Assembly (NCBI GenBank): GCA_001766815.1
Contig: LYOS01000002.1
Location: 234,577-266,576 of the forward strand
Source of the DNA: Candidatus Syntropharchaeum caldarium
GTDB lineage: Archaea; Halobacteriota; Syntropharchaeia; Syntropharchaeales; Syntropharchaeaceae
DNA: 32,000 nt
Direction: 5' to 3'
A program made the translations under genes and the position numbers. The notes beneath the pieces are model-generated. The model was not told where the DNA came from, did not search any database, and worked only from the letters and a program-made list of their open reading frames with translations. Each line of letters opens with the position of its first letter. Positions within the stretch are counted from its first letter, which is position 1. Shown one piece after another: positions 1,799 through 29,879 of this stretch.

Positions 1799-1830
1799 TG
1801 GGATCGTTAAAATAGTTATCTGTTGTTATC

Positions 1831-1838
1831 TATTTATA
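1831..1838 (-). promoter_or_regulatory. Candidate TATA box for the cas6-cas10 transcript
   Basis: The minus strand reads GGTATAAATAG, 33 nt upstream of the cas6 ATG, inside a 216-bp AT-rich divergent spacer. Confidence 0.3.
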
Positions 1839-2014
1839 CCTTTGTTACGCTCATGATTCTGCCAGATTCACCTATTGAACTTGAATATCAGACACTATAA
1901 TCTTTTTTGCCATTATATTGGTTGACTATTGTTGTAAATACACAATATTATGTAAATAATCCCAAAATAATAAATAATACCTCCACATAACAAAATAAAA
2001 GACAGGTGATGTGA

Positions 2015-2974: not shown

Positions 2975-3029
2975 ATTCTACATAAACCTTAAATGTCCAT
3001 TCAAACTAAAAGATAGTAAGACTTGTTGA

Positions 3030-4022: not shown

Positions 4023-4037
4023 ATTGAAGGGATAAAA

Positions 4038-4391
4038 ATGGCGAACATACTCCTTGTGGATGATTCAGAATTTATGCGAAAACTCCTGAAAAAGTTTCTG
4101 ACACCGAAACACACGATAGTTGGTGAAGCAGATGACGGCATCGTTGCAGTCGAGAGATTCGATGAGTGGAATCCTGAAGTGGTCCTGATGGATGTTGTGA
4201 TGCCACACATGGATGGAATCACGGCAACAAGACATATCACGAGGGCACACCCTGAGGTAAAGGTGATCATGTGTACATCGATCGGTGAGGAGAAAAAAGT
4301 AAAAGCTGCGATCGAGGCAGGGGCGGTTGGGTATGTCACAAAACCTTTCCATGGGCCAAATGTCTTAAAAGAAGTCGATAGCGTACTATAA
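4038..4391 (+). CDS. cheY: Chemotaxis response regulator CheY (single receiver domain)
   Basis: 117 aa. It has the acidic pocket LLVDDS, the phospho-acceptor context VVLMDVVMP, the conserved T/S (MCTS) and K (YVTKPF). It lies within the che cluster. Confidence 0.85.
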   Translation: MANILLVDDSEFMRKLLKKFLTPKHTIVGEADDGIVAVERFDEWNPEVVLMDVVMPHMDGITATRHITRAHPEVKVIMCTSIGEEKKVKAAIEAGAVGYVTKPFHGPNVLKEVDSVL

Positions 4392-4419
4392 GAGTTGTTT
4401 AAGTTCTCATATCTATAAT

Positions 4420-4905
4420 TCACAACCTCATCTCACCGTGTCCGGTCCTAACAAGAACTGTTCCAGTCTCAATATAGAACTCAACCGTCCTGCTAAAATT
4501 CTTTCCTGTATCCTCTGATGTGATCTTAAGGTTCAGAGCGTGGAGAGCTTTCTTTACAGCCGCGACATTCTGCTCGCCTATATTAATCGATTCTTTCTTT
4601 CCAAAGCTCGAAAACATCGTTGCACCGCCTGCAATCTTTGTTACAAGCCGTTCCCTGGATGCTCCTGCTTCAAGCATTCTCTCTACAAGCACCGGGATCG
4701 CGGTATCTGCATACATCAATAGTTTCTGTTTACCTCTCTCTGAGCTATTGCTGTCAGGAAGCATTATATGAGCGAGGCCGCCTATCTTTGCAACAGGATC
4801 ATAAATACATATACCAACACATGAACCGAGTCCTATAGTGATAAGGGTGCTACCGCCTTTTGCAATCTTCAAATCAGCTATACCTACTTTTATGATCCCA
4901 CTCAT
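4420..4905 (-). CDS. cheD: Chemoreceptor glutamine deamidase CheD
   Basis: 161 aa with the GLGSCVGICIYDP...GGLAHIMLP signature of CheD. It lies immediately downstream of cheA. Confidence 0.85.
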   Translation of the reverse strand: MSGIIKVGIADLKIAKGGSTLITIGLGSCVGICIYDPVAKIGGLAHIMLPDSNSSERGKQKLLMYADTAIPVLVERMLEAGASRERLVTKIAGGATMFSSFGKKESINIGEQNVAAVKKALHALNLKITSEDTGKNFSRTVEFYIETGTVLVRTGHGEMRL

Positions 4906-4919
4906 GCGTCTCTTCTTCT

Positions 4920-6956: not shown

Positions 6957-6971
6957 CGGCGAGAGATGGCC

Positions 6972-8396
6972 TCACCTATATACACCCCTTCCAATTCCTA
7001 TGCGATCCTCTCCCCCTTCTTCTATCTGCCAGTCTATCGGGAGCAGAATGCGGAAGGTACTGCCAACACCTGGTTCACTCTCAACTGTTATAGTACCTCC
7101 ATGAAGTTCAACAAGCTCCTTAACGATCGATAGCCCGATCCCGGTCCCACTACCAGATCGAGTGGTGCTACCATCCACCTGATAAAACCTATCAAATATC
7201 TTGTCAAGCTCTTCCTTTTCAATACCAATACCATCATCAGTGACGTCCACTATGATATTCTCTGAGTCTGCGTGTAACCTGATCATTGTTGTGGTGTTCT
7301 CAGGGTTGTACTTTATCGCGTTTGAGACGAGGTTCATCAGTGCCTGTTTCATCCGTCTTGGATCGATCAATCGCATCGGGATCTCACCCTCCACATTGAG
7401 TATAAGATTCTGTCCCTTCGCCTCCGCGTTCTTTGCCATCCTCTCGACAACATCCTCAGCGATATCGGTGATCACGATCTGAACGAGATCGAGTTTGAAA
7501 TTGCCTGCATCGAGTTTTGCGAGATCAAGGATCATCTCAACGAGATCTTCGAGATCAAGTGTTTCTCTCATTGCCACATCGACTGAACGTTTCATTTTTT
7601 CGGTCAATTCACCAAGCTTACCGGTTTTCAGGAAGTGCAGATGCGCTTTTATCACGGTCAGCGGAGTTTTGAGTTCATGTGAGACGTTCGAGAAGAACTG
7701 CGTCTTCAGCCTATCAAGCTCCTGCAGATCTTTGTAAGCTTCTGAAAGTTTTAACTGATCATTCTTAAGCTCACGTGTTGCCAGCTCGATCTCATGTTCA
7801 AGCTCCATTGCATGACGCTCCAGTTGATCCTGAAGCTTTCTCTTCTCAGTCACATCCTTCATCGTCTCAACAGCAACGGTTCTTCCATCCCGATCCTTGA
7901 ATGGCGCGAGGGTGATCTCGAATATCCTGCCATCCTGCAGCGTTCTTGAGGTTGTGAAAGGTTTATACGTATCTATCACCTCTTCAACCATACAACCTTC
8001 ACAGGGTGCATTCCTACCGGAATAAACTTCGTAGCAGATTCTTCTGATAGCATTTCCAAAATTCGTTTCAACAACGCTGTTCTGGAACTTGACTTTATAA
8101 TTTCGATCAATGATGGCGAGGCCCTGATTAGTACTATCAAGTGCTCTTTCATAGTAGTCTGAGACTGCTTCGATCTCTACTTCGTGTCTGATTTGAAGTC
8201 TCAAACTGTAGCCCACGACCAGAAACATTGATACAGTGGTAAGGAGGGCAAGCAGAATGATTGGCCACGCTATCAGATTAGCTATAAATGTTGATATCCC
8301 GTTTATTCCGATCTCCAGGACAGTATAGAATGTAACAAGGAAGAACCCAAGCCCCATCACAAGGTCTGGAATTAAATATGTTAACGATCTTTTCAT
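6972..8396 (-). CDS. Membrane sensor histidine kinase (2 TM, PAS, HisKA, HATPase_c)
   Basis: 474 aa. Two N-terminal hydrophobic helices are followed by a PAS-like segment with CYEVYSGRNAPCEGC. It has the H-box FFSNVSHELKTPL, an N-box LVSNAIKYN and G-boxes DDGIGI and GTGIGLSIV. Confidence 0.9.
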   Translation of the reverse strand: MKRSLTYLIPDLVMGLGFFLVTFYTVLEIGINGISTFIANLIAWPIILLALLTTVSMFLVVGYSLRLQIRHEVEIEAVSDYYERALDSTNQGLAIIDRNYKVKFQNSVVETNFGNAIRRICYEVYSGRNAPCEGCMVEEVIDTYKPFTTSRTLQDGRIFEITLAPFKDRDGRTVAVETMKDVTEKRKLQDQLERHAMELEHEIELATRELKNDQLKLSEAYKDLQELDRLKTQFFSNVSHELKTPLTVIKAHLHFLKTGKLGELTEKMKRSVDVAMRETLDLEDLVEMILDLAKLDAGNFKLDLVQIVITDIAEDVVERMAKNAEAKGQNLILNVEGEIPMRLIDPRRMKQALMNLVSNAIKYNPENTTTMIRLHADSENIIVDVTDDGIGIEKEELDKIFDRFYQVDGSTTRSGSGTGIGLSIVKELVELHGGTITVESEPGVGSTFRILLPIDWQIEEGGEDRIGIGRGVYR

Positions 8397-8435
8397 CTAT
8401 ATTTCTCGTTATCAATGTAAATTTCTTTCACCCCC

Positions 8436-8891
8436 TCACGTCATGCCACCTGTAAGTACCTCTTCCAGATCCACTATGATGAGAAGTCTCCCATCATCAA
8501 GCTTTCCGATGCCCTTGATGTACTTAATATCAATCGAGGACTCGAGGACGTCAGGGGTTGACTCAACCGCGTCCGACTCAAGCTGCAAAACCTCTATAAC
8601 CGTATCAACGATCATTCCAATCGGCGTACTATTTATCTCAACAATTATCACCTGCCCATCTCGATCTTCTATCTTTTCTTCTAATATCCCGAATCGTTTC
8701 TTGAGATCGACCACTGTTGTAACCTGCCCTCTCCGATTTGTAACACCGTCAACAAAGAAAGGAGCGCCTGGTACAGGTGTGACATGTCCCATCGGCGTAA
8801 TTTCCCGCACCTGCTTGACGTCCACGCCGTATAGAGTGTTATTCAGCGAGAATACAACAAGCTGGATATCCTCTGTCACACATTCATCCAT
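8436..8891 (-). CDS. cheW: Chemotaxis coupling protein CheW
   Basis: 151 aa in the typical CheW pattern (LVVFSLNNTLYGVDVKQVREI...VTNRRGQVTTVVDLKKRFG...GRLLIIVDLEEVL). Confidence 0.9.
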   Translation of the reverse strand: MDECVTEDIQLVVFSLNNTLYGVDVKQVREITPMGHVTPVPGAPFFVDGVTNRRGQVTTVVDLKKRFGILEEKIEDRDGQVIIVEINSTPIGMIVDTVIEVLQLESDAVESTPDVLESSIDIKYIKGIGKLDDGRLLIIVDLEEVLTGGMT

Positions 8892-8905
8892 TTTTTCACC
8901 CCTCT

Positions 8906-10852
8906 TTAGTTCAGTTTGAAGTGGCCAAGCTCTCTGAGAAGATCATCCGCAAGACCTGCAAGTGTCTGTGTTGATGCGGCAAGCTCCTCAATAGCTGCTG
9001 TCTGCTCTTCAACCGATGCAGAACTCTCTTCTGAGGCCGATGCACTCTCCTCTGAGACTGCTGCAACCACTTCGATCATCGTAAATATCTCCTTCATCGA
9101 AGCATCAATCCTGGTTGCTCTTTCTGCAATCTCTTCTATTATTGCATTTATCTCACCAATCGATGAGACCACATTCTCAACGCTCTTCAGGGCTACCTCA
9201 AGAACCTCTCCTCCTTCTTTTGCAGCGGTGTCTGCTTTGGAAGAGATCTCAAGTGTGCTCGTACCAACCTCGTTGATCTCATCAACTGCACTGATTGATT
9301 CACGGGCTGCATTCTTGACCTGATCTGCGAGGTTCTTGACGGCATCTGCAACAACCGCAAATCCCCTTCCAGCCTCGCCTGCACGGGCCGCTTCGATCGC
9401 AGCGTTCAATGCGAGCATGTTCGTCTCGTTTGCAACCTCGGTTATCACTTTACCAAGCTCTCCAACCTTCTTGATCGACTGGTTCATATCCTTGATCGAG
9501 TTAGAGGTCTTTGCAATCTCACGCTGTATCGACTCAAGCCCAGACATAGCTTCCTCTGCATTCTCTTGAACCTCTTCTGACTTCTCGACCGCTTCTTTTC
9601 CTTTCTGGGTGGAGTCCTTTATGCGTTTATTTGTGGAATCTATTAGCTCTGAAATTTCACTGACATTTCCTGCGGCCTTCTGCGCAAGTTCTACGAGCTT
9701 CTGTGATCCTTCTGTTACATTCTGCGTTCCAGATGAGATCTGATCCATCGATGCTGACATCTCCTGTGATGAAGCAGAAAGTGTTTGAGCCATATCTGCA
9801 ACCTGTTTTGCGACGTCATCTGCAGATGCAATCGCCCCCGCAACCGCATTAACAAGAGTGTTGAAATCATCAATCATCCTGCCAAGATCATCATCCCGCT
9901 CTTTCTCAAGCCTGACCGTGAGATCTCCTTCTGCAACCTGCCTCACCGCCTCAGCAAAACGCTCTGTATTTCGCTGGAGGTAGTCCTGTTGCTCTTTGAT
10001 CACTGTGATATCTGTTATATATTCAAGCGCACCCACGATCTTGCCTTCTGCATCCTTCATCGGCGCATCTGTGTACTGTATCGGGATATTACCTGCTCCA
10101 TGTGCAACCGTCTCACCTGTGAAAACGCCATCATTTCGCATCGCCAGGGATGCTCGACACTCCTCTGTCTGGCAGTGTGGTGTGTCAAATAGTTCATAGC
10201 ATTTCTTCCCGATTGCAGATTCTGGTGTCTCTCCGACAGCATTTGCACCAGCCCTGTTTATGAACTGAATGTTGAAGTCCCTATCAATGACCATCACAGG
10301 AGCTGGAATGTTGTTGAGATACTCAACCTTCACCTGTGCATCATACTCAGCCTTCTTAACCTCAACAACCGAAGTCCCTGTGTGCAGTATCCCGTATATC
10401 TCACCATTCTCGTCTCTCAGAGGATCACAGGTGTATTTGATCGGTATAAACTCTTCACCAAGCTTGATATCAATCTCAAAGACCGAACTCTCGCCCCTGG
10501 CAGCTTTTGATAGCGCATCCTTCATCTTAGCCACTGCATCATGAGAATATGTCCACCATTCCATATCGAGAAAATTCCTTCCAACGACGTCATCGAGTGT
10601 GAAACCAAAGCCTTCAAGCGGTGCACGGTTTGCAAACTTTATTGTACCATCAACCTCACTCGCTGCCATCAATGTTGGCATGTTGTCAAGATACTCAACC
10701 TTCTCCTTTGCGTCTTTTGCCGCCAATTTCATCTCTGCATTCTCTTTTTCAAGTCTTTCAATCAGCGATTCGAGTTCTTCTATCTTTGACGGCTCTTTTA
10801 CAGATGCACCAGTATCTGCTTTCGTAGTAGAACTCTTCTTCTTTGCTGACAA
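8906..10852 (-). CDS. Soluble methyl-accepting chemotaxis protein: N-terminal coiled coil, two PAS domains, HAMP, MCP signalling domain
   Basis: 648 aa with no TM segment. The highly conserved hairpin tip is present ([32 protein letters not shown]). The start is TTG at 10852, preceded by GGGGGG with a 6-nt spacer. Confidence 0.9.
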
Positions 10853-11030: not shown

Positions 11031-11975
11031 TCAGATCTCAGATCTCAGCTCAGCAAGGGTTGCAACGCGCTCAGCAAATGCGTTATGTCTGTGGATACTC
11101 TCCTCGTTTGTCTGCATTATCGTTATGATCGAGTCATCCGGGAGATTCGTCAATCGTTCCACAACAAGCTTTGCCATCGCTCTGACACAATCCTCAACAA
11201 ATCTCGGTCTGCGGTGAGCGGCCTCAACTATTGATGCTTCATCCACCCGCTTCAGCAGTTCAAATATTCGTGAACTCATGGATTCCTCGATGATCTCGAT
11301 AATCTCATCGAGTGAGACATCAACCCCGTCAGAGACCTCGATCGTGATCATACCACGACCGCGCTGATTGTGGGTTGCCATCGGAACATTCTTGAGGAAA
11401 GTTCTGATCTTGTCTTCGGCAAGCCCGAGCTTTGAGAGTTCGTCCGCGGCCAGTTCGCGCATAATCTCCTGGGCACAGGGACAGGTTGTAATTCCAAGAA
11501 CCTCTGCTCCAATGCGTCGTTTGATGGTGATCTCATCGCCTCCTGTCGCAATTGCATCTGCATAGATATCCACTATCTCCTGACACTGCATATCGGTTAT
11601 CGGTGTCCTTCGCTTGATTATGTATTCACTCTGCATCTGAACCTCTGCTCTGGATGCATACTCATGTCTATCAAGCAGTTTCCGTGCGACAGCACTGCAT
11701 AACTCCTCTATCTCATAGACTGGAGCGTTTATCGCCTCTTCAAGCACCTCGTCGATCGCTTCAAAGTTTCTGGAGAGGTTTGCACCCTTGATCTCTCTCG
11801 GCAGATCGACAAAAATATTGAACGTCGAAATGAGAATGATCGGACGTTTGTTATCTCTTGCAACCTCTACAAGCTTCTTCACATTTTTGACACCCACTCG
11901 AGTGAGGTTTATCTGGATATCCGGGTGGTTTGACTGAACATCAGGTAGCACCATCAGGGGAATCTCATGGATCAT
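11031..11975 (-). CDS. mptA: GTP cyclohydrolase MptA (GCH IV/FolE2 family, methanopterin biosynthesis)
   Basis: Contains LPDVQ...[13 protein letters not shown]...[10 protein letters not shown]...[10 protein letters not shown]...ATHNQRG, the FolE2/MptA pattern. The longest ORF starts at TTG 12017. ATG 11975 (an 11-nt overlap with the tatC 3' end) or ATG 11954 is more likely. Confidence 0.8.
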
Positions 11976-12726
11976 GTTTAAAAGTGTATCTATTTTTTGC
12001 AGTGGGTGAATAACCAATACCTGCTATCAATATCCCAGCCTCATAGAAGATAACAAGCGGCAAGCCAACGATGATCTGGCTGAAGACATCTGGGGGGGTG
12101 AATACTGCCGCCATGATAAAAAGGGCAACATACGCATGCCTCCTGTATGCTTTCACGGTCTCAAGACGTACGAGCCCTGATCTCACAAAGAACAGGATCA
12201 GAAGCGGAAGCTCAAATGAGATGCCGATTAAAAGGGTCATTATAAGAACAAATGAGACAAACTCCTGTATCGAGTAGGTGGCATGTACGAGCCCTGAACC
12301 TGTAGCATCACTATAGAGGAATTTTAGAAAGAGGGGAAGCATGAAACAGTATGAATAGATCATGCCAATCACAAAAAGAGAGATGGCAGTGACTAAAAAA
12401 AGTACCGCATTCGATGGTTTGATGCGCGTCCTGATCTTAAACCGTTCCTTAAGTGCACGGTGCATGATGTAGAGTATGACTGGTAGAGAGAGGAGCACAC
12501 CTATCGCAAGCGCCATCTTGAACTTGAGAAGGATGACTTCAACAGGTGATATGTATATAAGTTCTGCGCCTTCAGGCAGGAGATCGTCTTTTATGATAAT
12601 AAGCAGGTCATTGAGGAACGGGAAGGAGATCATCATGCCCAGAACAATAACAAGAAGAACCAGCTTGAGTTTCTTCCTTATGGATACAGTTATATAACCA
12701 AGTTGTTCACCAATAGGAGTAGGCAT
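11965..12726 (-). CDS. tatC: TatC paralog (twin-arginine translocase component), divergent N-terminus
   Basis: Polytopic membrane protein with GISFELPLL and FTPPDVFSQ motifs. The track start at 12732 is TTG. ATG 12726 has AGGTGG 6 nt upstream. Confidence 0.8.
12690..12697 (+). promoter_or_regulatory. Candidate TATA box for the plus-strand tatC, lying inside the minus-strand tatC coding region
   Basis: TTATATAA followed by CC, about 59 nt upstream of the ATG at 12756. Confidence 0.3.
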
Positions 12727-12755
12727 GGACAACCACCTGTAACGGAGTCGGGATT

Positions 12756-13484
12756 ATGGCAGATACGACCAGAGATAAACCGATAGAGGATAAAGAACTA
12801 CCGTTGATGGAGCACATCATGGAACTTAGAGGGCGGCTCATGACGGTTTTGATCCCGCTTATCATCATCACGCTTATCACCTTTCCTTTCTCAAATACGG
12901 CACTCACATATATATTCAGAGATTTAATTCCTGAAAACCTGTCACTCTTCATCTATAGCCCCATAGAATGGATTTCTTTGAGATTTCTCTTTTCTTTAGT
13001 TTGTGCACTTGCTATTACGATCCCCCTCTTATTATATGAAACTTTTGCGTTCATCGCTCCGGGCCTCTATCCACATGAAAAGCGGTTCATCCTGAGGATT
13101 CTCATGCCATCATTTCTGCTCTATCTCCTTGGGGTTGTCTTTGCATATTACGTTGCACTCCCTCTTATCTTTGCTGCGCTAATCCCCTATGGCAGTGAAC
13201 TGGCAGCCTCTGCCTTCTCTGCAAAGCGCGTCTTCTCACTCATCTTCTATACAGCAATCTGGTTGGGAGTTATCTTTCAGGTGCCACTACTTATAATACT
13301 TGGTGTAAAGGCAAAAATCACAAACTACCATGCATTGCGGGCAAAGCGCGGTATCGTGTATATCGCCGCAATCGCCATAGCCCTCTTCGTAAACTCTGAT
13401 CCAACAGGCGTCTCACAGGTTCTGATTGCAGCCCTTCTGATCGTACTTTTCGAGCTTGGATTGCTTATAACACGATTTATGTAG
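12756..13484 (+). CDS. tatC: TatC paralog with a canonical N-terminal motif
   Basis: 242 aa with LMEHIMELRGRL (the H-x-x-E-L-R motif) and IAPGLYPHEKRF. It has GVIFQVPLL (Q where most TatC have E) and NSDPTGVSQ. Confidence 0.85.
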   Translation: MADTTRDKPIEDKELPLMEHIMELRGRLMTVLIPLIIITLITFPFSNTALTYIFRDLIPENLSLFIYSPIEWISLRFLFSLVCALAITIPLLLYETFAFIAPGLYPHEKRFILRILMPSFLLYLLGVVFAYYVALPLIFAALIPYGSELAASAFSAKRVFSLIFYTAIWLGVIFQVPLLIILGVKAKITNYHALRAKRGIVYIAAIAIALFVNSDPTGVSQVLIAALLIVLFELGLLITRFM

Positions 13485-13488
13485 TGTT

Positions 13489-13502
13489 AAAAAGAAAAAA
13501 AA
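13489..13502 (-). terminator. T8-C-T5 tract ending the Roadblock operon
   Basis: The minus strand reads ACTTACTTTTTTTTCTTTTTAACA, in the 32-nt gap between the convergent genes ending at 13484 and 13517. Confidence 0.4.
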
Positions 13503-13516
13503 GTAAGTCGCTTCAT

Positions 13517-13861
13517 CTACTTTAGCACAAGCGGTGTTATCACAATCTTTGCCATCAACACCATGGCACCGAGCATACCGATGTGATGAATTATTCTTGT
13601 AGCCTCGCCACCGCCCATCGCTCCAAGAATCTGTGCATCTATTGCGACCGAGAGACAGATGAACGTCAGTCCCAGATAGAGCAGTGTGTTGTGCTTTGTC
13701 TTATCGTATGCGAGAAAACTTGCACCCACAACAACAATGCAGACCGCAAGCTCAAGCGCGCTCGACCACAGTTCCCACGCTGGTGTCTCCTCTTCTGCAG
13801 CAGATGCCACACCAGCGAGTAAGACCAGTGTTAGAAGCAACACCAGCAGCATGTTTCGCAT
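13517..13861 (-). CDS. Small membrane protein (signal peptide-like N-terminus plus about 3 TM helices)
   Basis: ATG at 13861 is preceded by AAGGAGGTGA. The protein starts MRNMLLVLLLTLVLLAGVASAAEEE and continues with hydrophobic helices. It is the last gene of the Roadblock operon. The track ORF start at 13918 is probably too far upstream. Confidence 0.55.
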   Translation of the reverse strand: MRNMLLVLLLTLVLLAGVASAAEEETPAWELWSSALELAVCIVVVGASFLAYDKTKHNTLLYLGLTFICLSVAIDAQILGAMGGGEATRIIHHIGMLGAMVLMAKIVITPLVLK

Positions 13862-13886
13862 TTTAATTATCTCACCTCCTTTTCTC

Positions 13887-15221
13887 TTAGAAATCAAATG
13901 AATTTGCAAGTTTCTCATAGTTAATTTCCTCTTTTTTCTTTTCCTCGTGCCTCATACCAATATCCAGTGGCAATGTACACTCGATATCTTCTGCCTCAAA
14001 TCTTTTTTTAATCTCTTCATCGAGTAAGGCAGAGAGTTGTGAATTATCAAAGTGTTTGAGCTTTGATAACATGCCAAATTCATACCAGACAGTGACATGT
14101 ATCGCTTCGTCTATCACAACTGATGTATTCAATATCCTGATACGATTCTTCTTTCCAAAGTTTCTTATCTCGGCGTTCACCACTTCAGAGAGTAATTCAT
14201 AGTTCGGACTCCTTTCAACCTCCTCTTTCACTTCTTCAACTATATCGAGATTTACGGCATTATCGTTACCTATGATCATGTGTCCCAGACCCTCTGTCTC
14301 AACATGAACTTTCAGAGAATCGAGACTGATGTCCAGATCCTGGAAATCGGTAATAAAATCGAGTAGCCCCTCCTCTTCATTCGAGGACTGTTTACTGGTT
14401 TCTTCGATCTTAAACGTCTCTCGCCATTCACGCGTATCATCCGACCCGATCGGCGATGCGGTGATCACGATCTCGCCGGTGCCTTTCTTCTCAGGTATAA
14501 ACTCAATCTCCTGTACCTTTCCAGCTTCAATCATCCTTACAAAGGATTTTTGTTTCTCGCCTTCGATTGAGATCGAGACCTCAAGGTCAAAGATCTCCCC
14601 TTCGTCCTCAGATTTTGCCTGAATAAGGATTGGGATTACATCCCCGATCATAAATTGATCTTGCCCGATGTCTATCGTAAGTTCAAAATCTTTTGTCCCC
14701 GCGGTGGCAGGCACCACCTCTTCAATCACTGCACCTTCGGAAGTTTTCTCTTCTTTTTCCTGTTCTTCCTCCTCTAAGATAAGATATGGTCTTCCCTGTG
14801 AGTCAATAGCAAGAACGCCAGAACCCCACGTATCAATGACTGTTCCTCTGCCCTCTTCAAGTTCAGTTGTGATCTTGATCAGATCATCCATCATCGTGAA
14901 GAGGGATTCTTTATTCCATTCCTTTATCTTTGACATATCCGATGGGTTGAGCATGCATACATCAAACCAGCCTTTTTTGATGCTCAAGAATTTTTTGCAG
15001 GCCTTCCACCCGTGATATGTGTAATCTGCCCCCTCCTCTGATGATCCTATGATTTTTCCATTCTCTAAAAGGAGATATTTATCCACAAAACTCGTTTCCT
15101 GATTGGATACCCGGATATATCCAGTAAAAGAATCCATTATAAGATCGTATATAATCTTCCCAACGTCATGGTCTTCCATTCTTTCATCCCTGTATATGAA
15201 TTTCCCGGTTAAAAGATCCAA
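13887..15221 (-). CDS. Acidic multidomain protein: N-terminal PATAN/DUF4388-like domain, central beta-sandwich-like domain, C-terminal alpha/beta domain
   Basis: 444 aa. The N-terminus (VGKIIYDLIMDSFTGYIRVSNQETSFVDKYLLLENGKIIGS...YHGWKACKKFLSIKKGWFDV) follows the DUF4388/PATAN consensus shape. Two Glu-rich linkers are present. The middle segment (FELTIDIG...GEIVITASP) looks like a CARDB/Ig-type sandwich. The call is by pattern only. Confidence 0.45.
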   Translation of the reverse strand: MDLLTGKFIYRDERMEDHDVGKIIYDLIMDSFTGYIRVSNQETSFVDKYLLLENGKIIGSSEEGADYTYHGWKACKKFLSIKKGWFDVCMLNPSDMSKIKEWNKESLFTMMDDLIKITTELEEGRGTVIDTWGSGVLAIDSQGRPYLILEEEEQEKEEKTSEGAVIEEVVPATAGTKDFELTIDIGQDQFMIGDVIPILIQAKSEDEGEIFDLEVSISIEGEKQKSFVRMIEAGKVQEIEFIPEKKGTGEIVITASPIGSDDTREWRETFKIEETSKQSSNEEEGLLDFITDFQDLDISLDSLKVHVETEGLGHMIIGNDNAVNLDIVEEVKEEVERSPNYELLSEVVNAEIRNFGKKNRIRILNTSVVIDEAIHVTVWYEFGMLSKLKHFDNSQLSALLDEEIKKRFEAEDIECTLPLDIGMRHEEKKKEEINYEKLANSFDF

Positions 15222-15224
15222 TAG

Positions 15225-15575
15225 TTAACCCCCCACAAGGTACGATTTAAATTCGGGTATTGCAACCTTCATAGCGACCCTGACCATGCCTATGTTGGCA
15301 TCTCTATCCGTCAACACAGCAACACCCCCTGCATCCACGGGAAGTACAAGGAGCTTCTCATTGTTCATCTCAAGCATTATAAACTCAGAATTTGATCCAA
15401 TACCCTCGGCAACTTTCTCTGAGTAGTTTATGAGGTCCTGGGCGTATGCAAATAGCTTTTCCTTGTCAACGTCCGTTGATGTGATCGCGTCGACCGGTAG
15501 ACCATGCACAAATACGCCACATGCATGAACACCACCTATCCTCATCAGATCTTCAAGCCTCTTTTTAATACTCAC
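15225..15575 (-). CDS. Roadblock/LC7 (MglB-like) domain protein
   Basis: 116 aa with LEDLMRIGGVHACGVFVHGLPV...LLVLPVDAGGVAVLTDRDANIGMVRVAMKVA, the typical Roadblock/LC7 fold pattern. GTG start with GGAGAGGTGA upstream. Confidence 0.7.
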   Translation of the reverse strand: MSIKKRLEDLMRIGGVHACGVFVHGLPVDAITSTDVDKEKLFAYAQDLINYSEKVAEGIGSNSEFIMLEMNNEKLLVLPVDAGGVAVLTDRDANIGMVRVAMKVAIPEFKSYLVGG

Positions 15576-15628
15576 TCACCTCTCCACCACATCGAAAATA
15601 AAATATGGGGTGAATACCCCTTTATCTC

Positions 15629-15982
15629 TCACTGCAGCTGCTTCTGCACCAGTGGTATTGCTTTTTTCATCTCAAGGCGCGCCTTACCAAGGTTACCGTT
15701 TGCTTCAAGTGCCATCCCAATCCAGTACTCCTCATCGATCGGGCGCAGGAAGAAGATTGCAGCATCCGTTGTTGTCATCGACTCTTTGACCTTTCCGGCG
15801 CTTGCATCTTCCATCATCTTCTTGGAGTAGGTAAGCCCCATTGCAGCAGATGCTACTGCATCCTCTATCGAGAAATTCGGATCAGTCTGTGCCGATGCAA
15901 CTGGCATGCCATCATATCCGGCAATCGCCACTGCGATCGAACCATCAACGTTTTTTAGTATATCATTTAACACTCTTTCCAA
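15629..15982 (-). CDS. Roadblock/LC7 (MglB-like) domain protein
   Basis: 117 aa with LNDILKNVDGSIAVAIAGYDGMPVAS...AAIFFLRPIDEEYWIGMALEANGNLGKARLEMKKA, the typical Roadblock/LC7 pattern. It is a distinct paralog of the downstream gene. Confidence 0.7.
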   Translation of the reverse strand: MERVLNDILKNVDGSIAVAIAGYDGMPVASAQTDPNFSIEDAVASAAMGLTYSKKMMEDASAGKVKESMTTTDAAIFFLRPIDEEYWIGMALEANGNLGKARLEMKKAIPLVQKQLQ

Positions 15983-16085
15983 TGCCGTATTTTATCCCCC
16001 CTTTCAGGTTCTTCGTTCTACACATCGAGCAGATGTATATTATGTTTTATTACTGAATTTATCTATAAAAGTCTTTTGTAAGTGG

Positions 16086-16146
16086 TTAAAAACTTTTAAA
16101 GTTTTGTAAATACTATTAAAATAGTTTAAATACCTTTAAAAACTTT
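16086..16146 (-). terminator. AT-rich spacer with repeated T-runs after the AMP phosphorylase gene
   Basis: After the TAA stop the minus strand contains AAAGTTTTTAA twice (plus strand TTAAAAACTTT at 16086-16096 and 16136-16146) plus ATTTTAA. This is consistent with oligo-T termination signals. Confidence 0.3.
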
Positions 16147-16150
16147 CATT

Positions 16151-17704
16151 TTACAAAATCCTTCCACTTGGCAGCACCCTTTCAAGCACCATCCCCTCAA
16201 CATCTACAGGCTTCAACCTGTTTGCAAGCTTAACAGCATCTTCGAGTCTTGCTCTGCTGTCAGAGAAGATCGTGTAGATGACCTCACCTCGATCAACCTT
16301 CATCCCCATCTTCTTCTCAAGTAGTATCCCACCTCCTTTCTTTGATGGGGCACCGGCAGCCCTTGCTATCTTTACGATGCTTTTGTTGTTTATCGAGACA
16401 ACATATCCGTTTGCATCCGAGATAAGTTCTGCAGAGTATTTACCAACTTGAATTGTATCTGATGTGATATCTGGATCTCCTCCCTGTGCAGCTATAATCT
16501 CACGCATCTTCTTCAATGCCCTGCCGCTTGAGAGGATCTCTGCTGCACGATCCCTACCAGTATCAGCACGCACTCCCCCCATCTCAAGTACCATGCCTGC
16601 AAGACACACCGCCTTCTCGATAACACTGTTTGGAACACCACTTTTTCCTTCAAGTGCAGCCAGCGCCTCTTTTGCCTCAAGAAGTGGACCTATCGCCCTC
16701 CCAACAGGTTGTCCACCGTATGTAATTGCACACTCAACCACCATCCCAAGCTCTTCTGCTACAAGCATAAGATCTCTACTGTACTTCTTTGCAAGCTCAA
16801 TTGATTCCACCTTTGCGTTTGGACCCACAGGTATGTCAAGCACAAGCTTATGAACCCCACAGGACTTCTTCTTGGCGAGTATCGATGCTATGAGCTGTGG
16901 GTATGGATCTATCGTGAGTGGGTACTCTGCTCTGATGATCAGATCGTCTGCTGGAGCGATATTGACACCTCCCCCCCATACGATTGTGCCACCAACACGC
17001 TCTGCAATGTTTTTGATCTCAGGGATGGTGAAAGTAACATTAGCAAGCACCTCAAAGATGTCAGCAGTGCCACACGCACTACTTATCGCCCTTGAGCTTG
17101 TTTTAGGGATCAAAAGACCTGCCTCAGCAACGATCGGGACTACAAGGAGAGTTACTTTATTTCCAGGTACACCACCAATTGAGTGAAAGTCAAATACAGG
17201 TTCCTGGTCAAACTCGATAACATCCCCTGTCTCAACCATGGCGAGCGTGAGGTCTTTGATCTCTCTTATTGACATCCCTTTTGTGTATACCGAGCTTATG
17301 TAGGCTGCAAGTTCAATATCTGAGAGGTTTCTGTTTACAATATCTTTGATAATCTGTCTTATTTGTTGCGCGGATAGTTCCATCCCATCCATCTTGTTTT
17401 TTATGTACTCAACTGAGACCGGCTTCTCAGCAGCATGGATCTCAACCTCTGTACCCACGACCTCCTCAAGTTCAGTGATCACATTGATCGGGAGACCCAC
17501 TTCATCCTCTGCAACAATCTTTTTTGAGACGAGAACAAGTCCTGTGACTGTTTTTTTACTACCTCTCACCTTTACACGATCGTTGCTCACAACACCAAGC
17601 TCAAATGCCGCATCAGGGTGGATTACGACGAGATGCCTTGATCCTGTATCGACATCGAGCCGTTTGATCTTGAATACTTGATTCTGATCCATCAAACCCC
17701 CCAT
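16151..17704 (-). CDS. deoA: AMP phosphorylase (thymidine phosphorylase family with extra N-terminal domain)
   Basis: About 513-517 aa. It has the N-terminal ~85-aa extension typical of archaeal AMP phosphorylase, then HSIGGVPGNKVTLLVVP and KTSSRAISSACGTAD motifs. An ATG at 17692 shares its A with the rbcL TGA stop (TGATG coupling) and is an alternative start. Confidence 0.85.
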   Translation of the reverse strand: MGGLMDQNQVFKIKRLDVDTGSRHLVVIHPDAAFELGVVSNDRVKVRGSKKTVTGLVLVSKKIVAEDEVGLPINVITELEEVVGTEVEIHAAEKPVSVEYIKNKMDGMELSAQQIRQIIKDIVNRNLSDIELAAYISSVYTKGMSIREIKDLTLAMVETGDVIEFDQEPVFDFHSIGGVPGNKVTLLVVPIVAEAGLLIPKTSSRAISSACGTADIFEVLANVTFTIPEIKNIAERVGGTIVWGGGVNIAPADDLIIRAEYPLTIDPYPQLIASILAKKKSCGVHKLVLDIPVGPNAKVESIELAKKYSRDLMLVAEELGMVVECAITYGGQPVGRAIGPLLEAKEALAALEGKSGVPNSVIEKAVCLAGMVLEMGGVRADTGRDRAAEILSSGRALKKMREIIAAQGGDPDITSDTIQVGKYSAELISDANGYVVSINNKSIVKIARAAGAPSKKGGGILLEKKMGMKVDRGEVIYTIFSDSRARLEDAVKLANRLKPVDVEGMVLERVLPSGRIL

Positions 17705-18927
17705 TTCTCAAGTGCAAGTCTGAGAGCCTCATGATCTGCTGCATACTCTTCCAGCGCCACTCCTTTAACTGATGCATCCACTGCCTCACAGATCGCTTTT
17801 GCACCTTCCCGAACGCCACCTGGATGTCCTGAGACACCTCCTCCTGCCTGAATCTGAATGTCATAACCGCCGATTGCTATAATTGCCGGGATAAGTCCTG
17901 GATGAATACCTCCAGAACATACGGGCACAACCGCTTTGAAATTGCCGAACGGTTCGATCAGTGCGTTTTGAGAGCGTTTATCCTCTAAATCAGATCCATG
18001 CATCTTCCCTACACCAAACGTTCCGATATGGAGCGCATCCCCACCACAGAGTCTGACAAGCCTTGCAATAACGGTCATTGCGATTCCGTGATCTGGATTT
18101 CTCGTGAGTGCTCCATGCATTGTCCTGTGGACATGGATCGGAAGATTTATAGATGGATCTTCCCGCAGGATTCGCACAGCATCAAATCCACACGTCAGCA
18201 CATCAACCATGATCTGGCGTGCACCATTTGCCATGGCAAGTTCTGCAAACTCGATGATCTTATCATGGGGTGAACTGACGTTGATTGCATGGATCATCCG
18301 ATTTCCCGCCTCATCAAAGACACGATCAAGTGCATCAGCGACTGCACTGGTTCGATCGGCAAGTGGGCAGAAGTCCTGGTCAACAAGCGTTTCATCATCT
18401 TTTGAGTTTGTAAGACCTCCCATACCTGCCTCATAGACATAGTCTGCAAACTTGCGGGGTGGCAGTCCGATCTTTGGTTTAACGATGGTACCGATAAATG
18501 GCTTATCTGGTCGATCGAGCAGTTTTCGTAGTCCTTTTATTCCAAATGCTGGACCTGGAAAGTGTTTTGCAAAAGCTTCTGGTATCCTGACATCTTCAAG
18601 TCGCACACCTTTAAGATCTTCAAGCCCAAAGAGGTTACCCGCAACAACACTCAAAAACTGCGGTATACCACCTCCTGCTGGATCAAAGTCTGCAAGCGGA
18701 TATGCAATCCTGACGATATCCCCATCGATCTCAATCACCTTGGCACCGAGTTCGGCGATGATCTCATGGGATGTTGTCGAGATGTCTGTCCAGGTTCCTG
18801 TCGACTCTTCAGCAGCGATTGCACGGGCTGCCTTCTTCATTTCAAGATCTGTTTTTACCCTGTATGTTGTCAGGATGTATCCCTCAGGATCGATCTTTTC
18901 TCCGATTGCAATATACGGTTCATCCAT
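17692..18927 (-). CDS. rbcL: Form III ribulose-1,5-bisphosphate carboxylase/oxygenase large subunit
   Basis: 411 aa with the catalytic motifs intact: AAEESTGTWT, VAGNLFG, GTIVKPKIGL, GGLTNSKDDET, IHVHRTMHGA, ALHIGTFGVGKMHG, CSGGIHPG, QAGGGVSGHPGG. Confidence 0.9.
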   Translation of the reverse strand: MDEPYIAIGEKIDPEGYILTTYRVKTDLEMKKAARAIAAEESTGTWTDISTTSHEIIAELGAKVIEIDGDIVRIAYPLADFDPAGGGIPQFLSVVAGNLFGLEDLKGVRLEDVRIPEAFAKHFPGPAFGIKGLRKLLDRPDKPFIGTIVKPKIGLPPRKFADYVYEAGMGGLTNSKDDETLVDQDFCPLADRTSAVADALDRVFDEAGNRMIHAINVSSPHDKIIEFAELAMANGARQIMVDVLTCGFDAVRILREDPSINLPIHVHRTMHGALTRNPDHGIAMTVIARLVRLCGGDALHIGTFGVGKMHGSDLEDKRSQNALIEPFGNFKAVVPVCSGGIHPGLIPAIIAIGGYDIQIQAGGGVSGHPGGVREGAKAICEAVDASVKGVALEEYAADHEALRLALEKWGV

Positions 18928-18931
18928 TTCT

Positions 18932-19837
18932 TCATCTCTCCTCGAATTTCTTTATGATATCGTAAGCTGCGAATGGTGAGATAACCCCCATTTCTGTCAC
19001 GATCGAATCGATGTACCTGGGTGGTGTCTGGTCAAATACAGGATTCTTTATCTTAACATCGAGACCCTCAAACTCGGCGACGTCAACGATCTCAGATGGG
19101 TCTCGCTCCTCTATCTCAACGATCCTGCCCATGGCGGTCTCTCTTGAGAATTTGTATCCTTCAGCACAGACAAGCACGGGAACTCTTGCTTCGTTGGCTG
19201 CAAGTGCAACCAGCGAGGTTCCAATCTTGTTTATAACAACACCGTTTGATGCAACGGTATCAGCACCAATTATAACAATATCAACCTTCTGCATGAAAAA
19301 TCGCACTGCGGAATCCACGATCAGCGTAACTGGAATACCATTCTCTGCAAGTGTTCTTGCCGTGATGCGCCCCTGATATCTGGGACGGGTCTCTGTTGCA
19401 TACACACTGATCTGTTTCCCCTCCTCATGTGCCTTTATAATGGTTCTGATCGCAGCAGTGCTGTTGCAGTGAGTGAGAATCACATCACCATCAACGATTC
19501 TGTGAGACCCCATCGTTGCAATTTGCTCTATTGCAGCAATGGAAGCCTCAACAAAATCATCGACGGCTTTAACCAGATTAGCCCTTATCTCTTCGATCGA
19601 TTCACCTGTTGCCCTACGCATCACGTACGACAGTGCATTAGATAGTGATATCGCGGTAGGACGTGTATTTTTTAACTCATTGCATCCCTCTCTCAGGGCT
19701 TTGAGATAAAGTTCAGTTGATTCTGCATCGATACTGAGCGCATATTCTTTCAGGGCCATGACCGCGCATCTTGCGATCTTGCCTGCCCCTCTGATCTCCA
19801 TATTCTTGATTTTCGATGCGGTTTCCTCGATTGACAC
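18932..19837 (-). CDS. Ribose-1,5-bisphosphate isomerase (eIF-2B alpha/beta/delta family)
   Basis: KNMEIRGAGKIARCAV near the N-terminus and ATETRPRYQGRITA...ADTVASNGVVINKIGT fit the e2b2 family. The longest ORF starts at GTG 19927. GTG 19837 or ATG 19801 are likelier starts, so the 5' end is uncertain. Confidence 0.8.
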   Translation of the reverse strand: MSIEETASKIKNMEIRGAGKIARCAVMALKEYALSIDAESTELYLKALREGCNELKNTRPTAISLSNALSYVMRRATGESIEEIRANLVKAVDDFVEASIAAIEQIATMGSHRIVDGDVILTHCNSTAAIRTIIKAHEEGKQISVYATETRPRYQGRITARTLAENGIPVTLIVDSAVRFFMQKVDIVIIGADTVASNGVVINKIGTSLVALAANEARVPVLVCAEGYKFSRETAMGRIVEIEERDPSEIVDVAEFEGLDVKIKNPVFDQTPPRYIDSIVTEMGVISPFAAYDIIKKFEER

Positions 19838-20120
19838 AATATAAATTAGGTGTCTGCGAGCATAAGGCTTTTTTGTTGTTGGTAGATGCCCATCGCGCGC
19901 ATTTACATATCCTATTAGTCTGTGCACTCTGCCGTTTGCAAAGTTTTATAAGTGGTGGTAGAAGATGGATGATAGTGGTGATGAGGTCCACCTTGGTTTA
20001 TGCCAAAACCGCTACAGCTAATGACTTCTAAATAAAAGATGCCAAGGTGAGAAGATGTATATGTTATTGCTTATTGGAATTGGAGGAATTTTTTCCTGAT
20101 GATTTCAACTGAGTAAAGTG

Positions 20121-22661
20121 TCAAGTATGGGTTAGACGAGTCTTCTCCACAAATTTCATCCACTCAACCACAACAAGCGTTGATAATCCAACCAGGATCA
20201 TCAACACCCAATCACCAGGATCAAGTCCCACCGTATGAAACGCACCCTGCAGGAATGGGAGGTATATCACGATAAGCTGGAGCAGGATCGTGCTTGAGAC
20301 GGCAAGTATCAGCGGTTTATTCGTCAGAAAACCAAGTTTGAAGATCGATTCCTTATCAGAGCGCCAGTTGAAGACATTGAACATCTCAGAGATTACAATT
20401 GTCGTGAAAACCATGGTCTGAGCTTTTTCAGGATCTGCGAGATGGAATATGAAAGATCCCTGTATCGCAACAAGAAGTCCAATGACGATCCCATAGAACA
20501 GTACGCGGCGGGTGAATATTCCTTCCTCCTTCCTCCTTGGGGGTTCTCGCATAATGTTATATCCTGGACGCTCTGTAGATAGCGCGATCGGTGGGATTCC
20601 ATCGGTCAGGAGATTGATCCAGAGTATCTGGACTGCAGGAAGTGGAAATCCTTTCACTGATACGAGATCCTCGAAGAAGAGGAACGCAAAAAGAACGAGA
20701 AGAATCTCACCGATGTGGCATGATAACCCATAGGTGAAGAAGTTCCTGATATTCCTGAATATCGTTCTTCCCTCTTCGACAGCAGCAACGATCGAGCTGA
20801 AGTTATCGTCCATGAGTATGATATCAGATGCCTCTTTCGCAACATCGGTCCCGGTTATCCCCATCGAGATCCCGATATCGGCCTTCTTGAGTGCAGGCGC
20901 ATCATTGACACCATCCCCTGTCATTGCAACGATATGCCCCCGTGCTTTCAATGCATCGATCACCTTGAGCTTGTGAAACGGTGAGACCCTTGCATAGACT
21001 GTAACATCCTCAGCAATCCTTTCAAGCTCATCCTCACCCATTAAATCAAGCATGGCACCTGTAACTATCTCACCCTTATCCTGCATCCCAATTTCTCTGG
21101 CGATGGCTGTCGCGGTTATCGGATTATCACCCGTTATCATCAGCGTCTTTATACCAGCCTCTCTACATCTCGCAATCGCTTTCTTTACTCCCTCTCTTGG
21201 CGGATCGATCATCCCCACAAGACCAAGAAATACCATATCGCTCTCTAAGTTAGAATCATCTACTTTCACGCTTTTATATGAGAACGCAAGTACCCTCAGC
21301 GCATCTCCTGCCATACTCGCTGCGTTCTTCAGTACCTCTTCTTTTTCAGATTCACTCAACCTGCAACAGGAAAGTATCACCTCACAGGCGCCCTTTGAAA
21401 AGGCATAGACCCCGTTCTCGCACCTGTTGACCGTCGTCATCATCTTACGCTCGGATGAGAAAGGGATCTCATCGATCCGCTCACACTTCTCGTCAAGCAG
21501 ATCTTTCGTGAAGCCGCCTTTTTCGGCAAGAACGAGTAAAGCACCCTCGGTCGAATCTCCAACGATCTTCCATCCATCCTCCTCCTTTCGAAGGTGTGCA
21601 TTATTACAGAGTGAACCTGCCATAAGAAGCAGTTCGAGGTCGTGATTGAGTTTCTCATCCTCATATAGGAGTATCTCCCCCTCTGGTGTATAACCCACGC
21701 CTGTAACCTCGATCATCCTCCCCTTCAGGTAGATCTTTCTAACCGTCATCTCACCCTCTGTGAGCGTTCCCGTCTTGTCGGTGCAGATCACAGAGGTTGA
21801 TCCGAGCGTCTCAACACTCAGGAGTCGCCTTACAAGTGCATTCCGTGATGCCATCCGTCTGAGCCCAAGTGCAAGTGCGATCGTGATAACCGCGGGAAGC
21901 GCCTCAGGAACGGCTGCAACAGCAAGCGCAATACCCAGGACAAAGATCTCAACCGGTGGCGCCCCTCGAAGAAGTCCGACTGATGCAACAACTGCACATA
22001 CAATGATGGTAAGCACGCCAAGCCACTTTCCAAGTCTATCTATCTCATGCTGGAGTGGGGTCTCCTCGTCATCGATTGCCTGAAGTGCACCTGCGATCTT
22101 CCCAAACTCAGTCTTCATCCCGGTCGCTGTGACAATTCCCTCGCCCCTTCCATGAAGCACAGTTGTACCCATGAAGACGGTGTCACCAGCCACCTTTGAT
22201 ACAGGCTCAGACTCACCCGTGAGTGGCGATTCATCGAGTTTCAGATCGACTGCCCGTATAAGACGCATATCTGCTGCAACCTTACTTCCTGTATCAAGCA
22301 GTAGAAGATCACCTGGGACAACAAAGGTGGAATCAATCTCAATTTCTTTGCCATCCCTCACAACAACCGCCTTTGGCGATGCCATTCTTTTAAGCGCCTG
22401 GATAGCCCCTTCTGCACGCATCTCCTGAATATACCCGAGTACACCTGAGAATAGGACGATTAAAAGAATTATAATGGCGTCTGTCACCTCTTCGGTTACA
22501 ACCGCAGATACAACCGCTGCGATGATTAAAATAACGATTAAAAAGCTTTTAAACTGTGATAGAAAAATTAAAAGGCGCGATCTTCGCTTCTCTTCGGTAA
22601 TCTCATTTCTTCCGTAAACTTCAAGCCTTCTTTCTGCTTCGATCTGGCTTAACCCAGACAC
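20121..22661 (-). CDS. P-type cation-transporting ATPase (P2, Ca2+-ATPase-like)
   Basis: 846 aa with the motifs TGES, ICTDKTGTLT, MITGDN, TGDGVNDAPALKKADIG, a TM4 PEALP and a TM6 NLLTDG. GTG start overlaps the upstream aminotransferase stop by 13 nt. Confidence 0.9.
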   Translation of the reverse strand: MSGLSQIEAERRLEVYGRNEITEEKRRSRLLIFLSQFKSFLIVILIIAAVVSAVVTEEVTDAIIILLIVLFSGVLGYIQEMRAEGAIQALKRMASPKAVVVRDGKEIEIDSTFVVPGDLLLLDTGSKVAADMRLIRAVDLKLDESPLTGESEPVSKVAGDTVFMGTTVLHGRGEGIVTATGMKTEFGKIAGALQAIDDEETPLQHEIDRLGKWLGVLTIIVCAVVASVGLLRGAPPVEIFVLGIALAVAAVPEALPAVITIALALGLRRMASRNALVRRLLSVETLGSTSVICTDKTGTLTEGEMTVRKIYLKGRMIEVTGVGYTPEGEILLYEDEKLNHDLELLLMAGSLCNNAHLRKEEDGWKIVGDSTEGALLVLAEKGGFTKDLLDEKCERIDEIPFSSERKMMTTVNRCENGVYAFSKGACEVILSCCRLSESEKEEVLKNAASMAGDALRVLAFSYKSVKVDDSNLESDMVFLGLVGMIDPPREGVKKAIARCREAGIKTLMITGDNPITATAIAREIGMQDKGEIVTGAMLDLMGEDELERIAEDVTVYARVSPFHKLKVIDALKARGHIVAMTGDGVNDAPALKKADIGISMGITGTDVAKEASDIILMDDNFSSIVAAVEEGRTIFRNIRNFFTYGLSCHIGEILLVLFAFLFFEDLVSVKGFPLPAVQILWINLLTDGIPPIALSTERPGYNIMREPPRRKEEGIFTRRVLFYGIVIGLLVAIQGSFIFHLADPEKAQTMVFTTIVISEMFNVFNWRSDKESIFKLGFLTNKPLILAVSSTILLQLIVIYLPFLQGAFHTVGLDPGDWVLMILVGLSTLVVVEWMKFVEKTRLTHT

Positions 22662-29837: not shown

Positions 29838-29879
29838 GTAATGTCATATAATATAATGTTAAGTGTAGGGGAAATAATC

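Follow-up and report, generated by a model that had tools for sequence, protein, structure and literature searches.

A conserved Roadblock/PATAN-like operon without a neighbouring small GTPase in Candidatus Syntrophoarchaeum caldarius and the MinD genes beside its relatives

Roadblock (RB) proteins are nearly always discussed as regulators of small GTPases. The Streptomyces conservon comprises the kinase CvnA, the Roadblock protein CvnB, CvnC and the GTPase CvnD, and Makarova et al. reportedly noted in 2006 that PATAN genes occur near mglA/mglB. In Myxococcus xanthus, RomR, MglC and MglB constitute a polarity complex (PMC10329633). In Synechocystis, the PATAN domain on its own binds the N-terminal domain of PilB1 and PilC (bioRxiv 10.1101/2021.06.11.447907). 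In Haloferax volcanii, MinD2 and MinD4 determine where archaella and chemosensory arrays are placed; a conserved small gene follows minD2 and shares its transcript (PMC11588486). Here, we describe a four-gene operon in a 32,000-nucleotide (nt) stretch of Candidatus Syntrophoarchaeum caldarius DNA (contig LYOS01000002.1, positions 234,577 to 266,576; hereafter, the window). The organism is a butane-oxidising archaeon, and the operon encodes two Roadblock proteins (RB1 and RB2), an acidic protein of 444 amino acids (aa), here called the scaffold (100% identical to SCAL_000814 of this species), and a small membrane protein.

Like the MglA/MglB/MglC/RomR/RomX module of M. xanthus, the operon has two different Roadblock paralogues, of which RB1 matches MglC, a large acidic scaffold, and an association with motility and chemosensory genes. 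It differs in its archaeal host, in the absence of an MglA-type GTPase from the locus and the window, and in its scaffold, which combines PATAN-like, immunoglobulin (Ig)-like and novel domains instead of being a RomR-type response regulator; moreover, the NTPase beside the module of its relatives is MinD. Like the conservon, it combines Roadblock and membrane components in an operon of several genes; its RB profile matches CvnB5 (E 6e-11), and one related locus (L010) has a GTPase related to CvnD-type proteins, but the operon itself lacks the histidine kinase, the DUF742 protein and the GTPase. PATAN/DUF2226 proteins are homologous to the N-terminal ~100 residues of the scaffold, mglB-like genes are known among their neighbours (PMC4316618), and DUF2226 genes are followed by RB genes in two loci of our comparison (L009 and L016). 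Unlike these proteins, the scaffold stays under every Pfam threshold, carries an additional Ig-like part and an EGLGH module, and has no receiver domain. The comparison with Ragulator (LAMTOR1-5) and the Rag GTPases, which likewise unites Roadblock-fold proteins, a scaffold and a membrane anchor, is purely inferential and only an architectural analogy: the resemblance of RB1 to MAPKK1_Int/LAMTOR3 and that of a protein encoded two genes upstream of MinD (locus L004) to LAMTOR5 are all sub-threshold, a Rag-like GTPase is lacking, and the anchor is an integral membrane protein and not a lipidated LAMTOR1. Finally, the MinD2-HVO_0596 pair of H. volcanii resembles the archaeal-type MinD followed by a small conserved gene in the relatives of our operon, the likeness being one of gene arrangement; for haloarchaeal MinDs, reports of a Roadblock or PATAN partner are lacking, and in S. 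caldarius MinD is encoded outside the window.

A sequence-only reading of the window had proposed four co-directional genes for two different Roadblock/LC7 paralogues, an acidic 444-aa protein with a PATAN-like N terminus, an Ig-like sandwich and an uncharacterised C-terminal domain, and a small protein with a signal-peptide-like and three transmembrane (TM) segments behind a strong Shine-Dalgarno (SD) motif. All of these assignments were borne out. RB2 exceeded the threshold of the Pfam family Robl_LC7 (PF03259; 29.5 bits vs 23, E 6e-7) and matched the solved Roadblock/LC7 protein PDB 7yh1 (E 5.8e-4). RB1 scored below the same threshold (18.5 bits vs 23, E 1.7e-3) and was matched over its full length by M. 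xanthus MglC (7ct3, E 2.3e-10). A joint profile of both paralogues and their orthologues recovered several solved structures, namely 7f8m (E 7.5e-22), MglC (E 4e-12), CvnB5 (3leq) and MglB (E ~1e-5), supporting Roadblock/LC7 membership of both proteins. The two share only ~25% identity; judged by sequence, they resemble an MglC-like and an MglB-like paralogue, respectively.

The scaffold (isoelectric point 4.47, net charge -47) consists of a PATAN/DUF2226-like domain (residues ~12-109), a helix/hairpin region, an acidic linker, an Ig-like sandwich (~178-275), a second acidic linker that contains an EGLGHM motif (310-315), a C-terminal domain (~340-428) and an FDF tail. Across its orthologues the EGLGHM motif is invariant, and the N-terminal MDLLTG and the FDF tail are conserved. 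The protein itself had no match in Pfam or NCBIfam, with none at E<1 for DUF4388 or DUF2226. Profile-profile comparison (hhalign), however, aligned residues 12-109 with DUF2226/PatA_N at 97.5% probability and an E value of 8e-12, and the PATAN-like call is therefore correct. A hidden Markov model built from six orthologues and searched against 1.8 billion representative proteins at E<=1e-3 matched only 11 proteins, so that the family is tiny. Six of these align to the N-terminal ~110 residues alone and match DUF2226 and/or DUF4388 (PatA_N), five of them passing the threshold of DUF2226 (PF09987) and one also that of DUF4388 (PF14332). The model reached P0009, P0014 and P0015 at E values of 7e-7 to 4e-4; each passes the DUF2226 threshold, and P0009 that of DUF4388 too. 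The secondary structure of the N terminus in the AlphaFold2 (AF2) model (beta-alpha-beta-beta-beta-alpha-beta-alpha) fits a PATAN/DUF2226 domain. The model has no helical insertion of the alpha-clip kind within residues 12-109 and in this respect the domain resembles the insertion-less archaeal DUF2226 type. No match to Response_reg was found by Pfam in the scaffold.

The Ig-like sandwich was modelled with a predicted local distance difference test (pLDDT) score of 73-84. Foldseek searches against the PDB placed it near the macroglobulin (MG) domains of C3/CVF (E 5e-6) and a CARDB domain (3idu, E 4.5e-4), matches that hold at the level of the Ig/CARDB/macroglobulin fold only, with 10-16% identity; a search with the whole scaffold returned Ig-type matches only. 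Modelled alone, the C-terminal domain adopts an alpha-beta-beta-alpha-beta arrangement (pLDDT ~90). The fold candidates for this domain, the C-terminal domain of MamM, OsmC and RbfA, were rejected as generic alpha/beta folds without significance (best E 0.016). The combination of PATAN-like, Ig-like and EGLGH/alpha-beta parts was found in about three lineages only, and the scaffold family is undescribed and very narrow.

The small membrane protein has four hydrophobic segments, an N-terminal signal-like one and three TM segments; it is 88% identical to its orthologue in L001 and matches the Pfam families 7TMR-DISM_7TM and MASE4 below threshold only. Its gene occurs in L001, L006 and L007 but not in L002, L010 or L011. 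A multi-TM protein from a related operon (L016, see below) was considered as a homologue and rejected, as no homology was detectable.

The four genes were expected to stay together in relatives if they formed a unit, and they do so in four Syntrophoarchaeum genomes, where the order RB1-RB2-scaffold-membrane protein is kept with 52-88% protein identity. It is unchanged in S. butanivorans (L007), while in the metagenome-assembled genome (MAG) GCA_030596445 (L001) and in Syntrophoarchaeum sp. (L006) an additional gene of 149 aa stands between RB1 and RB2, where the window has just a 53-nt spacer. A further Syntropharchaeia MAG (L002) encodes RB1, RB2 and the scaffold without the membrane gene. 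Alkanophagales (L003, L011, L012) have one RB, an orthologue of RB1, and a 342-aa scaffold of the same architecture, and in an unclassified 'Euryarchaeota archaeon' MAG (L010, L013, L014) one RB accompanies a 662-aa scaffold whose Ig-like part is repeated several times; BLAST matched this RB to neither RB1 nor RB2. Identity to RB1 amounts to 72% for the orthologues from Syntropharchaeia and to 42% for those from Alkanophagales. RB2 orthologues (59-61%) are confined to Syntropharchaeia. On the basis of these sequence comparisons, the conserved core is one RB plus the scaffold, this RB being RB1 in Syntropharchaeia and Alkanophagales, and the membrane protein, which is restricted to one genus, lies outside it.

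In L004/L005, the 276-aa protein P0011 joins an RB2-type Roadblock domain and the C-terminal EGLGH/alpha-beta module in one chain, as if the PATAN and Ig parts had been lost in frame. This natural fusion speaks for a joint action of RB2 and the C-terminal module and indicates that these parts are probably in contact. Beyond the scaffold family, a DUF2226 gene with two PATAN domains is followed in L016 by genes for an RB (E 1e-13), a weakly RB-like protein and a multi-TM protein, with no GTPase within 6 kb; hence, the combination of PATAN, Roadblocks and a membrane protein without a GTPase is not unique to Syntrophoarchaeum.

Some further genes occur in or just upstream of the RB-scaffold clusters. 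These accessory genes (L001 2726-3175 and L006 1521-1970, 149 aa each; L010 1338-1832, 164 aa and cysteine-rich) carry the precomputed labels PF27323 RdxA_C and PF27343 MJ0207; Pfam and PDB searches with them gave no match. A V4R/TRAPP label for the 149-aa and 164-aa genes was dropped, as Pfam, PDB sequence searches and pairwise BLAST did not support it. Directly after the 662-aa scaffold gene of L010, a 157-aa ORF (4407-4880, plus strand) is a near-identical copy of the scaffold's C-terminal module; as the sister contigs L013 and L014 lack it, it has either been duplicated recently or arisen as an artefact of assembly.

As far as gene context can tell, the strongest signal is one that had escaped the sequence-only reading, the pair of MinD and a small TM/coiled-coil gene in the relatives. 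A convergent archaeal MinD gene lies directly downstream of the scaffold gene in L002, L003, L004/L005, L010/L013/L014 and L011/L012, that is, next to the module in every locus outside Syntrophoarchaeum, and the remaining flanks differ between these loci. The MinD proteins match TIGR01969 with E values of 1e-92 to 3e-94. Behind MinD follows a gene for a TM/coiled-coil protein of 61-66 aa, and these small proteins form one family across loci. MinD is not encoded in the window, but S. caldarius keeps it in trans (P0233, 64% identical) on another contig. A short, unattributed metagenome contig also encodes the identical P0233 protein sequence, with a TM gene before and a 63-aa partner gene after it; the TM protein has homologues encoded upstream of MinD in L002 and L004. 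Genes for PilB3/T2SSE and T2SSF follow a few kb further on in L002 and in L013/L014, and Roadblock (arCOG02603) and FleN/MinD (arCOG00589) genes are often found in or near archaeal type IV pilus loci (PMC4858521). The MinD association is a new, testable lead, and the recurrent MinD with its small membrane protein offers a concrete partner for such tests.

Upstream of MinD, a family of N-terminally membrane-anchored proteins is encoded (L002 4330-4923, L004 7645-8337, L015 3-536), directly adjacent in L002 and two genes off in L004. Its C terminus is weakly Roadblock-like (hhalign 34%, E 4e-4; LAMTOR5 E 0.007, sub-threshold) and, on this sequence resemblance, may represent a second link between Roadblock proteins and MinD. 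An ATPase encoded directly after the membrane gene in L007 was considered as a MinD partner and rejected (66 bits vs the MinD cut-off of 201); its CxC motif is one that typifies nickel-insertion ATPases of the CooC type, and cytochrome c maturation genes come after it. A 34%-identical paralogue of this CooC-like ATPase stands beside MinD in Alkanophagales, a sequence relationship that hints at old synteny.

We tentatively favour the reading that the operon encodes a membrane-associated Roadblock/PATAN scaffolding module for the position or polarity of envelope machinery (archaellum, type IV pili, chemoreceptor arrays). It builds on the gene organisation, the domain assignments, the conservation of the genes, their neighbourhoods and the P0011 fusion, from which we infer all interactions and the cellular role. 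RB1 as an MglC-like adaptor and the MglB-like RB2 would assemble into a Roadblock dimer-of-dimers platform, which would bind the scaffold, RB2 probably touching its C-terminal EGLGH/alpha-beta module. By the example of the cyanobacterial PATAN domains, the PATAN-like N terminus may contact a PilB/ArlI-type motor ATPase or the membrane, and in Syntrophoarchaeum the 3-TM protein would tether the complex. A nucleotide switch would be provided in trans, with archaeal MinD and its small TM/coiled-coil partner as the best-supported candidate and a trans-encoded MglA-like GTPase as an alternative or additional partner.

Several observations weigh against this scaffolding role. The membrane protein is confined to the genus Syntrophoarchaeum, and the MinD pair is absent from the four Syntrophoarchaeum loci, the window included. 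Where present, the pair is convergent with the scaffold gene and not co-transcribed with it, and as several of the MinD-adjacent loci belong to Syntropharchaeia, shared ancestry could explain part of the synteny. Moreover, the link between PATAN domains and a motor ATPase is known from bacteria only, the confidence of the full-length AF2 scaffold model is low (pLDDT 59), and the scaffold's C-terminal domain has no significant fold match in the PDB.

The absence of a GTPase had been presented as a notable feature of the operon. Most ORFs of at least 100 aa in the window (among them all those not inside a longer ORF) were scanned with Pfam and all six frames for Walker-A motifs, and the 32-kb window contained neither a small GTPase, as had been claimed, nor a MinD/ParA ATPase; the only P-loop protein that proved genuine was a KaiC-like ATPase; a Walker-A match in ribosomal protein L15e was discarded as spurious. 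Nor did the 2-10 kb around the module show a small GTPase gene in L001, L002, L006, L007, L011-L014 and L016, and no MglA-like gene stands within a few genes of it in the window or in the Syntropharchaeia and Alkanophagales loci. An adjacent GTPase, which would have made the operon an ordinary known module had it always been present, occurs in only one of about five lineages. This is the L010 locus, where a divergent operon of RB, GTPase (165 aa) and RB lies 1.1 kb upstream of the RB-scaffold genes. The GTPase has G1 and G4 motifs, and its family, which is found in Bathyarchaeia and Methanobacteriales, is related to the 'ATP/GTP-binding proteins' of the Streptomyces CvnD type. Nevertheless, the missing GTPase is unremarkable as such and cannot be upheld as a distinction, because Wuichet & Sogaard-Andersen (2014) already listed 328 of 749 MglB homologues as uncoupled from MglA, none of them characterised, and noted PATAN genes near mglA/mglB (PMC4316618).

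These data bear on the view that RB1 and RB2 are a classical MglB-type regulator, acting as GTPase-activating protein, guanine nucleotide exchange factor or scaffold for an MglA/Arf-like GTPase from another part of the S. caldarius genome, which the scaffold and the membrane protein would localise in the manner of Ragulator or RomR/MglC/MglB. The divergent RB-GTPase-RB operon of L010, the matches of RB1/RB2 to the MglC, MglB and CvnB structures, and the documented PATAN neighbours of mglA/mglB speak for it. On the other hand, most loci have no GTPase in the 2-10 kb around the module, the window included, and no Syntrophoarchaeum protein was among the best 120 matches to the L010 GTPase, although the word-index search used is of limited sensitivity and thus does not prove that such a GTPase is absent from the genus. 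We consider this account somewhat unlikely; it is compatible with the scaffolding role favoured above and does not exclude it.

Alternatively, the four proteins could form a nucleotide-independent structural or regulatory complex that has no part in motility or polarity and serves, e.g., secretion, envelope biogenesis or stress signalling as a membrane-proximal adaptor, and the MinD, pilus and che neighbours would then be coincidental synteny. Many Roadblock proteins are indeed orphans of unknown function (PMC4316618), no RB, GTPase or MinD gene lies near those for the DUF2226 proteins of Theionarchaea (L008), the operon has TatC paralogues at its side in both the window and L001, and the C-terminal domain gives no informative fold match. 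However, only two genomes, both of one genus, show the TatC adjacency, the characterised relatives of the domains (MglB/MglC, PATAN) all act in polarity or motility, and the MinD pair stays adjacent to scaffolds that are detectably related via their N-terminal domain only (E 3e-9) and whose other flanks differ. In the light of these points, this explanation appears unlikely.

To our knowledge, the partner proteins of archaeal MinDs have not yet been identified. It would be a bold step, and we regard it as distinctly improbable, to see in the Roadblock/PATAN module this missing partner, i.e., a Roadblock-fold complex that regulates or localises the SIMIBI-class MinD and not a Ras-like GTPase. 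If it were so, the module would take the role of the bacterial MinE/MinC or FlhF-type partners and help to explain how the archaellum, pili and chemoreceptor arrays are positioned. A true MinD link would widen Roadblock function beyond the TRAFAC GTPases and provide a handle on archaeal cell polarity; a false one would add the locus to the orphan MglB/PATAN clusters, here in uncultured archaea that oxidise alkanes. In either case, the locus provides a Roadblock system that lacks a GTPase, is compact and conserved, and has an identifiable scaffold. That the four ORFs are chance neighbours or mis-called genes without functional unity, as the sub-threshold Pfam score of RB1 and the TTG or GTG starts of three of the four genes might suggest, is effectively refuted by their conservation, given an order kept in four genomes at 52-88% identity, spacers of 3 nt and 25 nt, SD motifs and an RB profile that matches solved structures at E 7.5e-22.

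The four genes are a real operon (Table 1). The gaps between RB2 and the scaffold gene and between the latter and the membrane gene are 3 nt and 25 nt, respectively. For the membrane gene, the ORF caller placed the start further out, at 13918; the strong SD motif GGAGGTGA lies 8 nt before an ATG at 13861, which is almost certainly the true start. The AT-rich spacer upstream, which borders on the AMP phosphorylase gene with its stop at 16151, and the T8CT5 run downstream are both present, as the sequence-only reading had described for the two ends of the cluster. Its promoter box was read directly from the sequence, sigma-70 scans not being applicable to archaea.

Table 1. Positions of the operon, its signals and the neighbouring features in the window.
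Feature	Positions	Strand	Length and signals	Assignment	Basis
Upstream spacer	15983-16150	-	168 nt; AT-rich; TTTATA box near 16058-16068	probable archaeal promoter	sequence reading
RB1	15629-15982	-	117 aa; TTG start	Roadblock/LC7, resembling MglC	
RB1-RB2 spacer	15576-15628	-	53 nt; small GC hairpin GGGGTATTCACCCC, then T-rich run; terminator-like match at 15620-15607		
RB2	15225-15575	-	116 aa; GTG start; GGAGAGGTG ahead	Roadblock/LC7, resembling MglB	
Scaffold gene (444 aa)	13887-15221	-	TTG start	acidic; PATAN/DUF2226-like N terminus	
Membrane protein gene	13517-13861	-	114 aa	signal-like segment and three TM segments	
T8CT5 run	13489-13502	-	15 nt past the last stop codon	likely archaeal termination signal	sequence reading
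Cas6 gene	1043-1798	-		endoribonuclease	
Stretch from Cas6 to MCP	1043-10852			Cas6, CheF, CheD, CheA, extra PAS histidine kinase, CheW, methyl-accepting chemotaxis protein (MCP)	
Chemotaxis cluster	3030-10852			CheF, unannotated 134-aa ORF, CheD, CheA, CheW, PAS-HAMP-MCP	
Sensor kinase gene	6972-8396			PAS-HisKA-HATPase	
TatC paralogue	11965-12732	-			
TatC paralogue	12756-13484	+			
AMP-salvage trio	16151-19927	-		AMP phosphorylase, form III RuBisCO, ribose-1,5-bisphosphate isomerase	
Isomerase gene of the trio	18932-19927	-		ribose-1,5-bisphosphate isomerase	
Fluoride riboswitch aptamer	19968-20037	+		RF01734	
P-type cation ATPase gene	20121-22661	-			
KaiC-like ATPase gene	29841-30722			P-loop protein	

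The chemotaxis cluster had been put at about 3 kb from the operon, and its end was measured at 2.7 kb; as this closeness is seen in the S. caldarius genome only, it is weak evidence. Within the cluster, the PAS-type sensor kinase gene interrupts cheA-cheW, and Pfam scans detected no CheY, CheB, CheR or CheC in the window. Beyond the cluster, the Cas6 gene is not accompanied by a CRISPR array in the window, as searched with Tandem Repeats Finder. The two TatC paralogues directly downstream of the operon are divergently transcribed. Such a pair also flanks the operon in L001 and not in L006 or L007, and TatC adjacency was dropped as a functional link, being seen in these two genomes only. On the other side, a fluoride riboswitch aptamer (41.2 bits vs a gathering score of 34, E 2.6e-8) occupies the gap between the isomerase gene and the 3′ end of the gene for a P-type cation ATPase. 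Within the ~470 nt downstream of it, no plus-strand ORF longer than 46 aa begins, and the sequence farther on is antisense to the ATPase gene; the riboswitch is therefore either an orphan or antisense to the 3′ end of the latter. A folE2 gene is also found in the surroundings of the operon, and the AMP-salvage trio, which is complete, lies directly upstream of it on the same strand.

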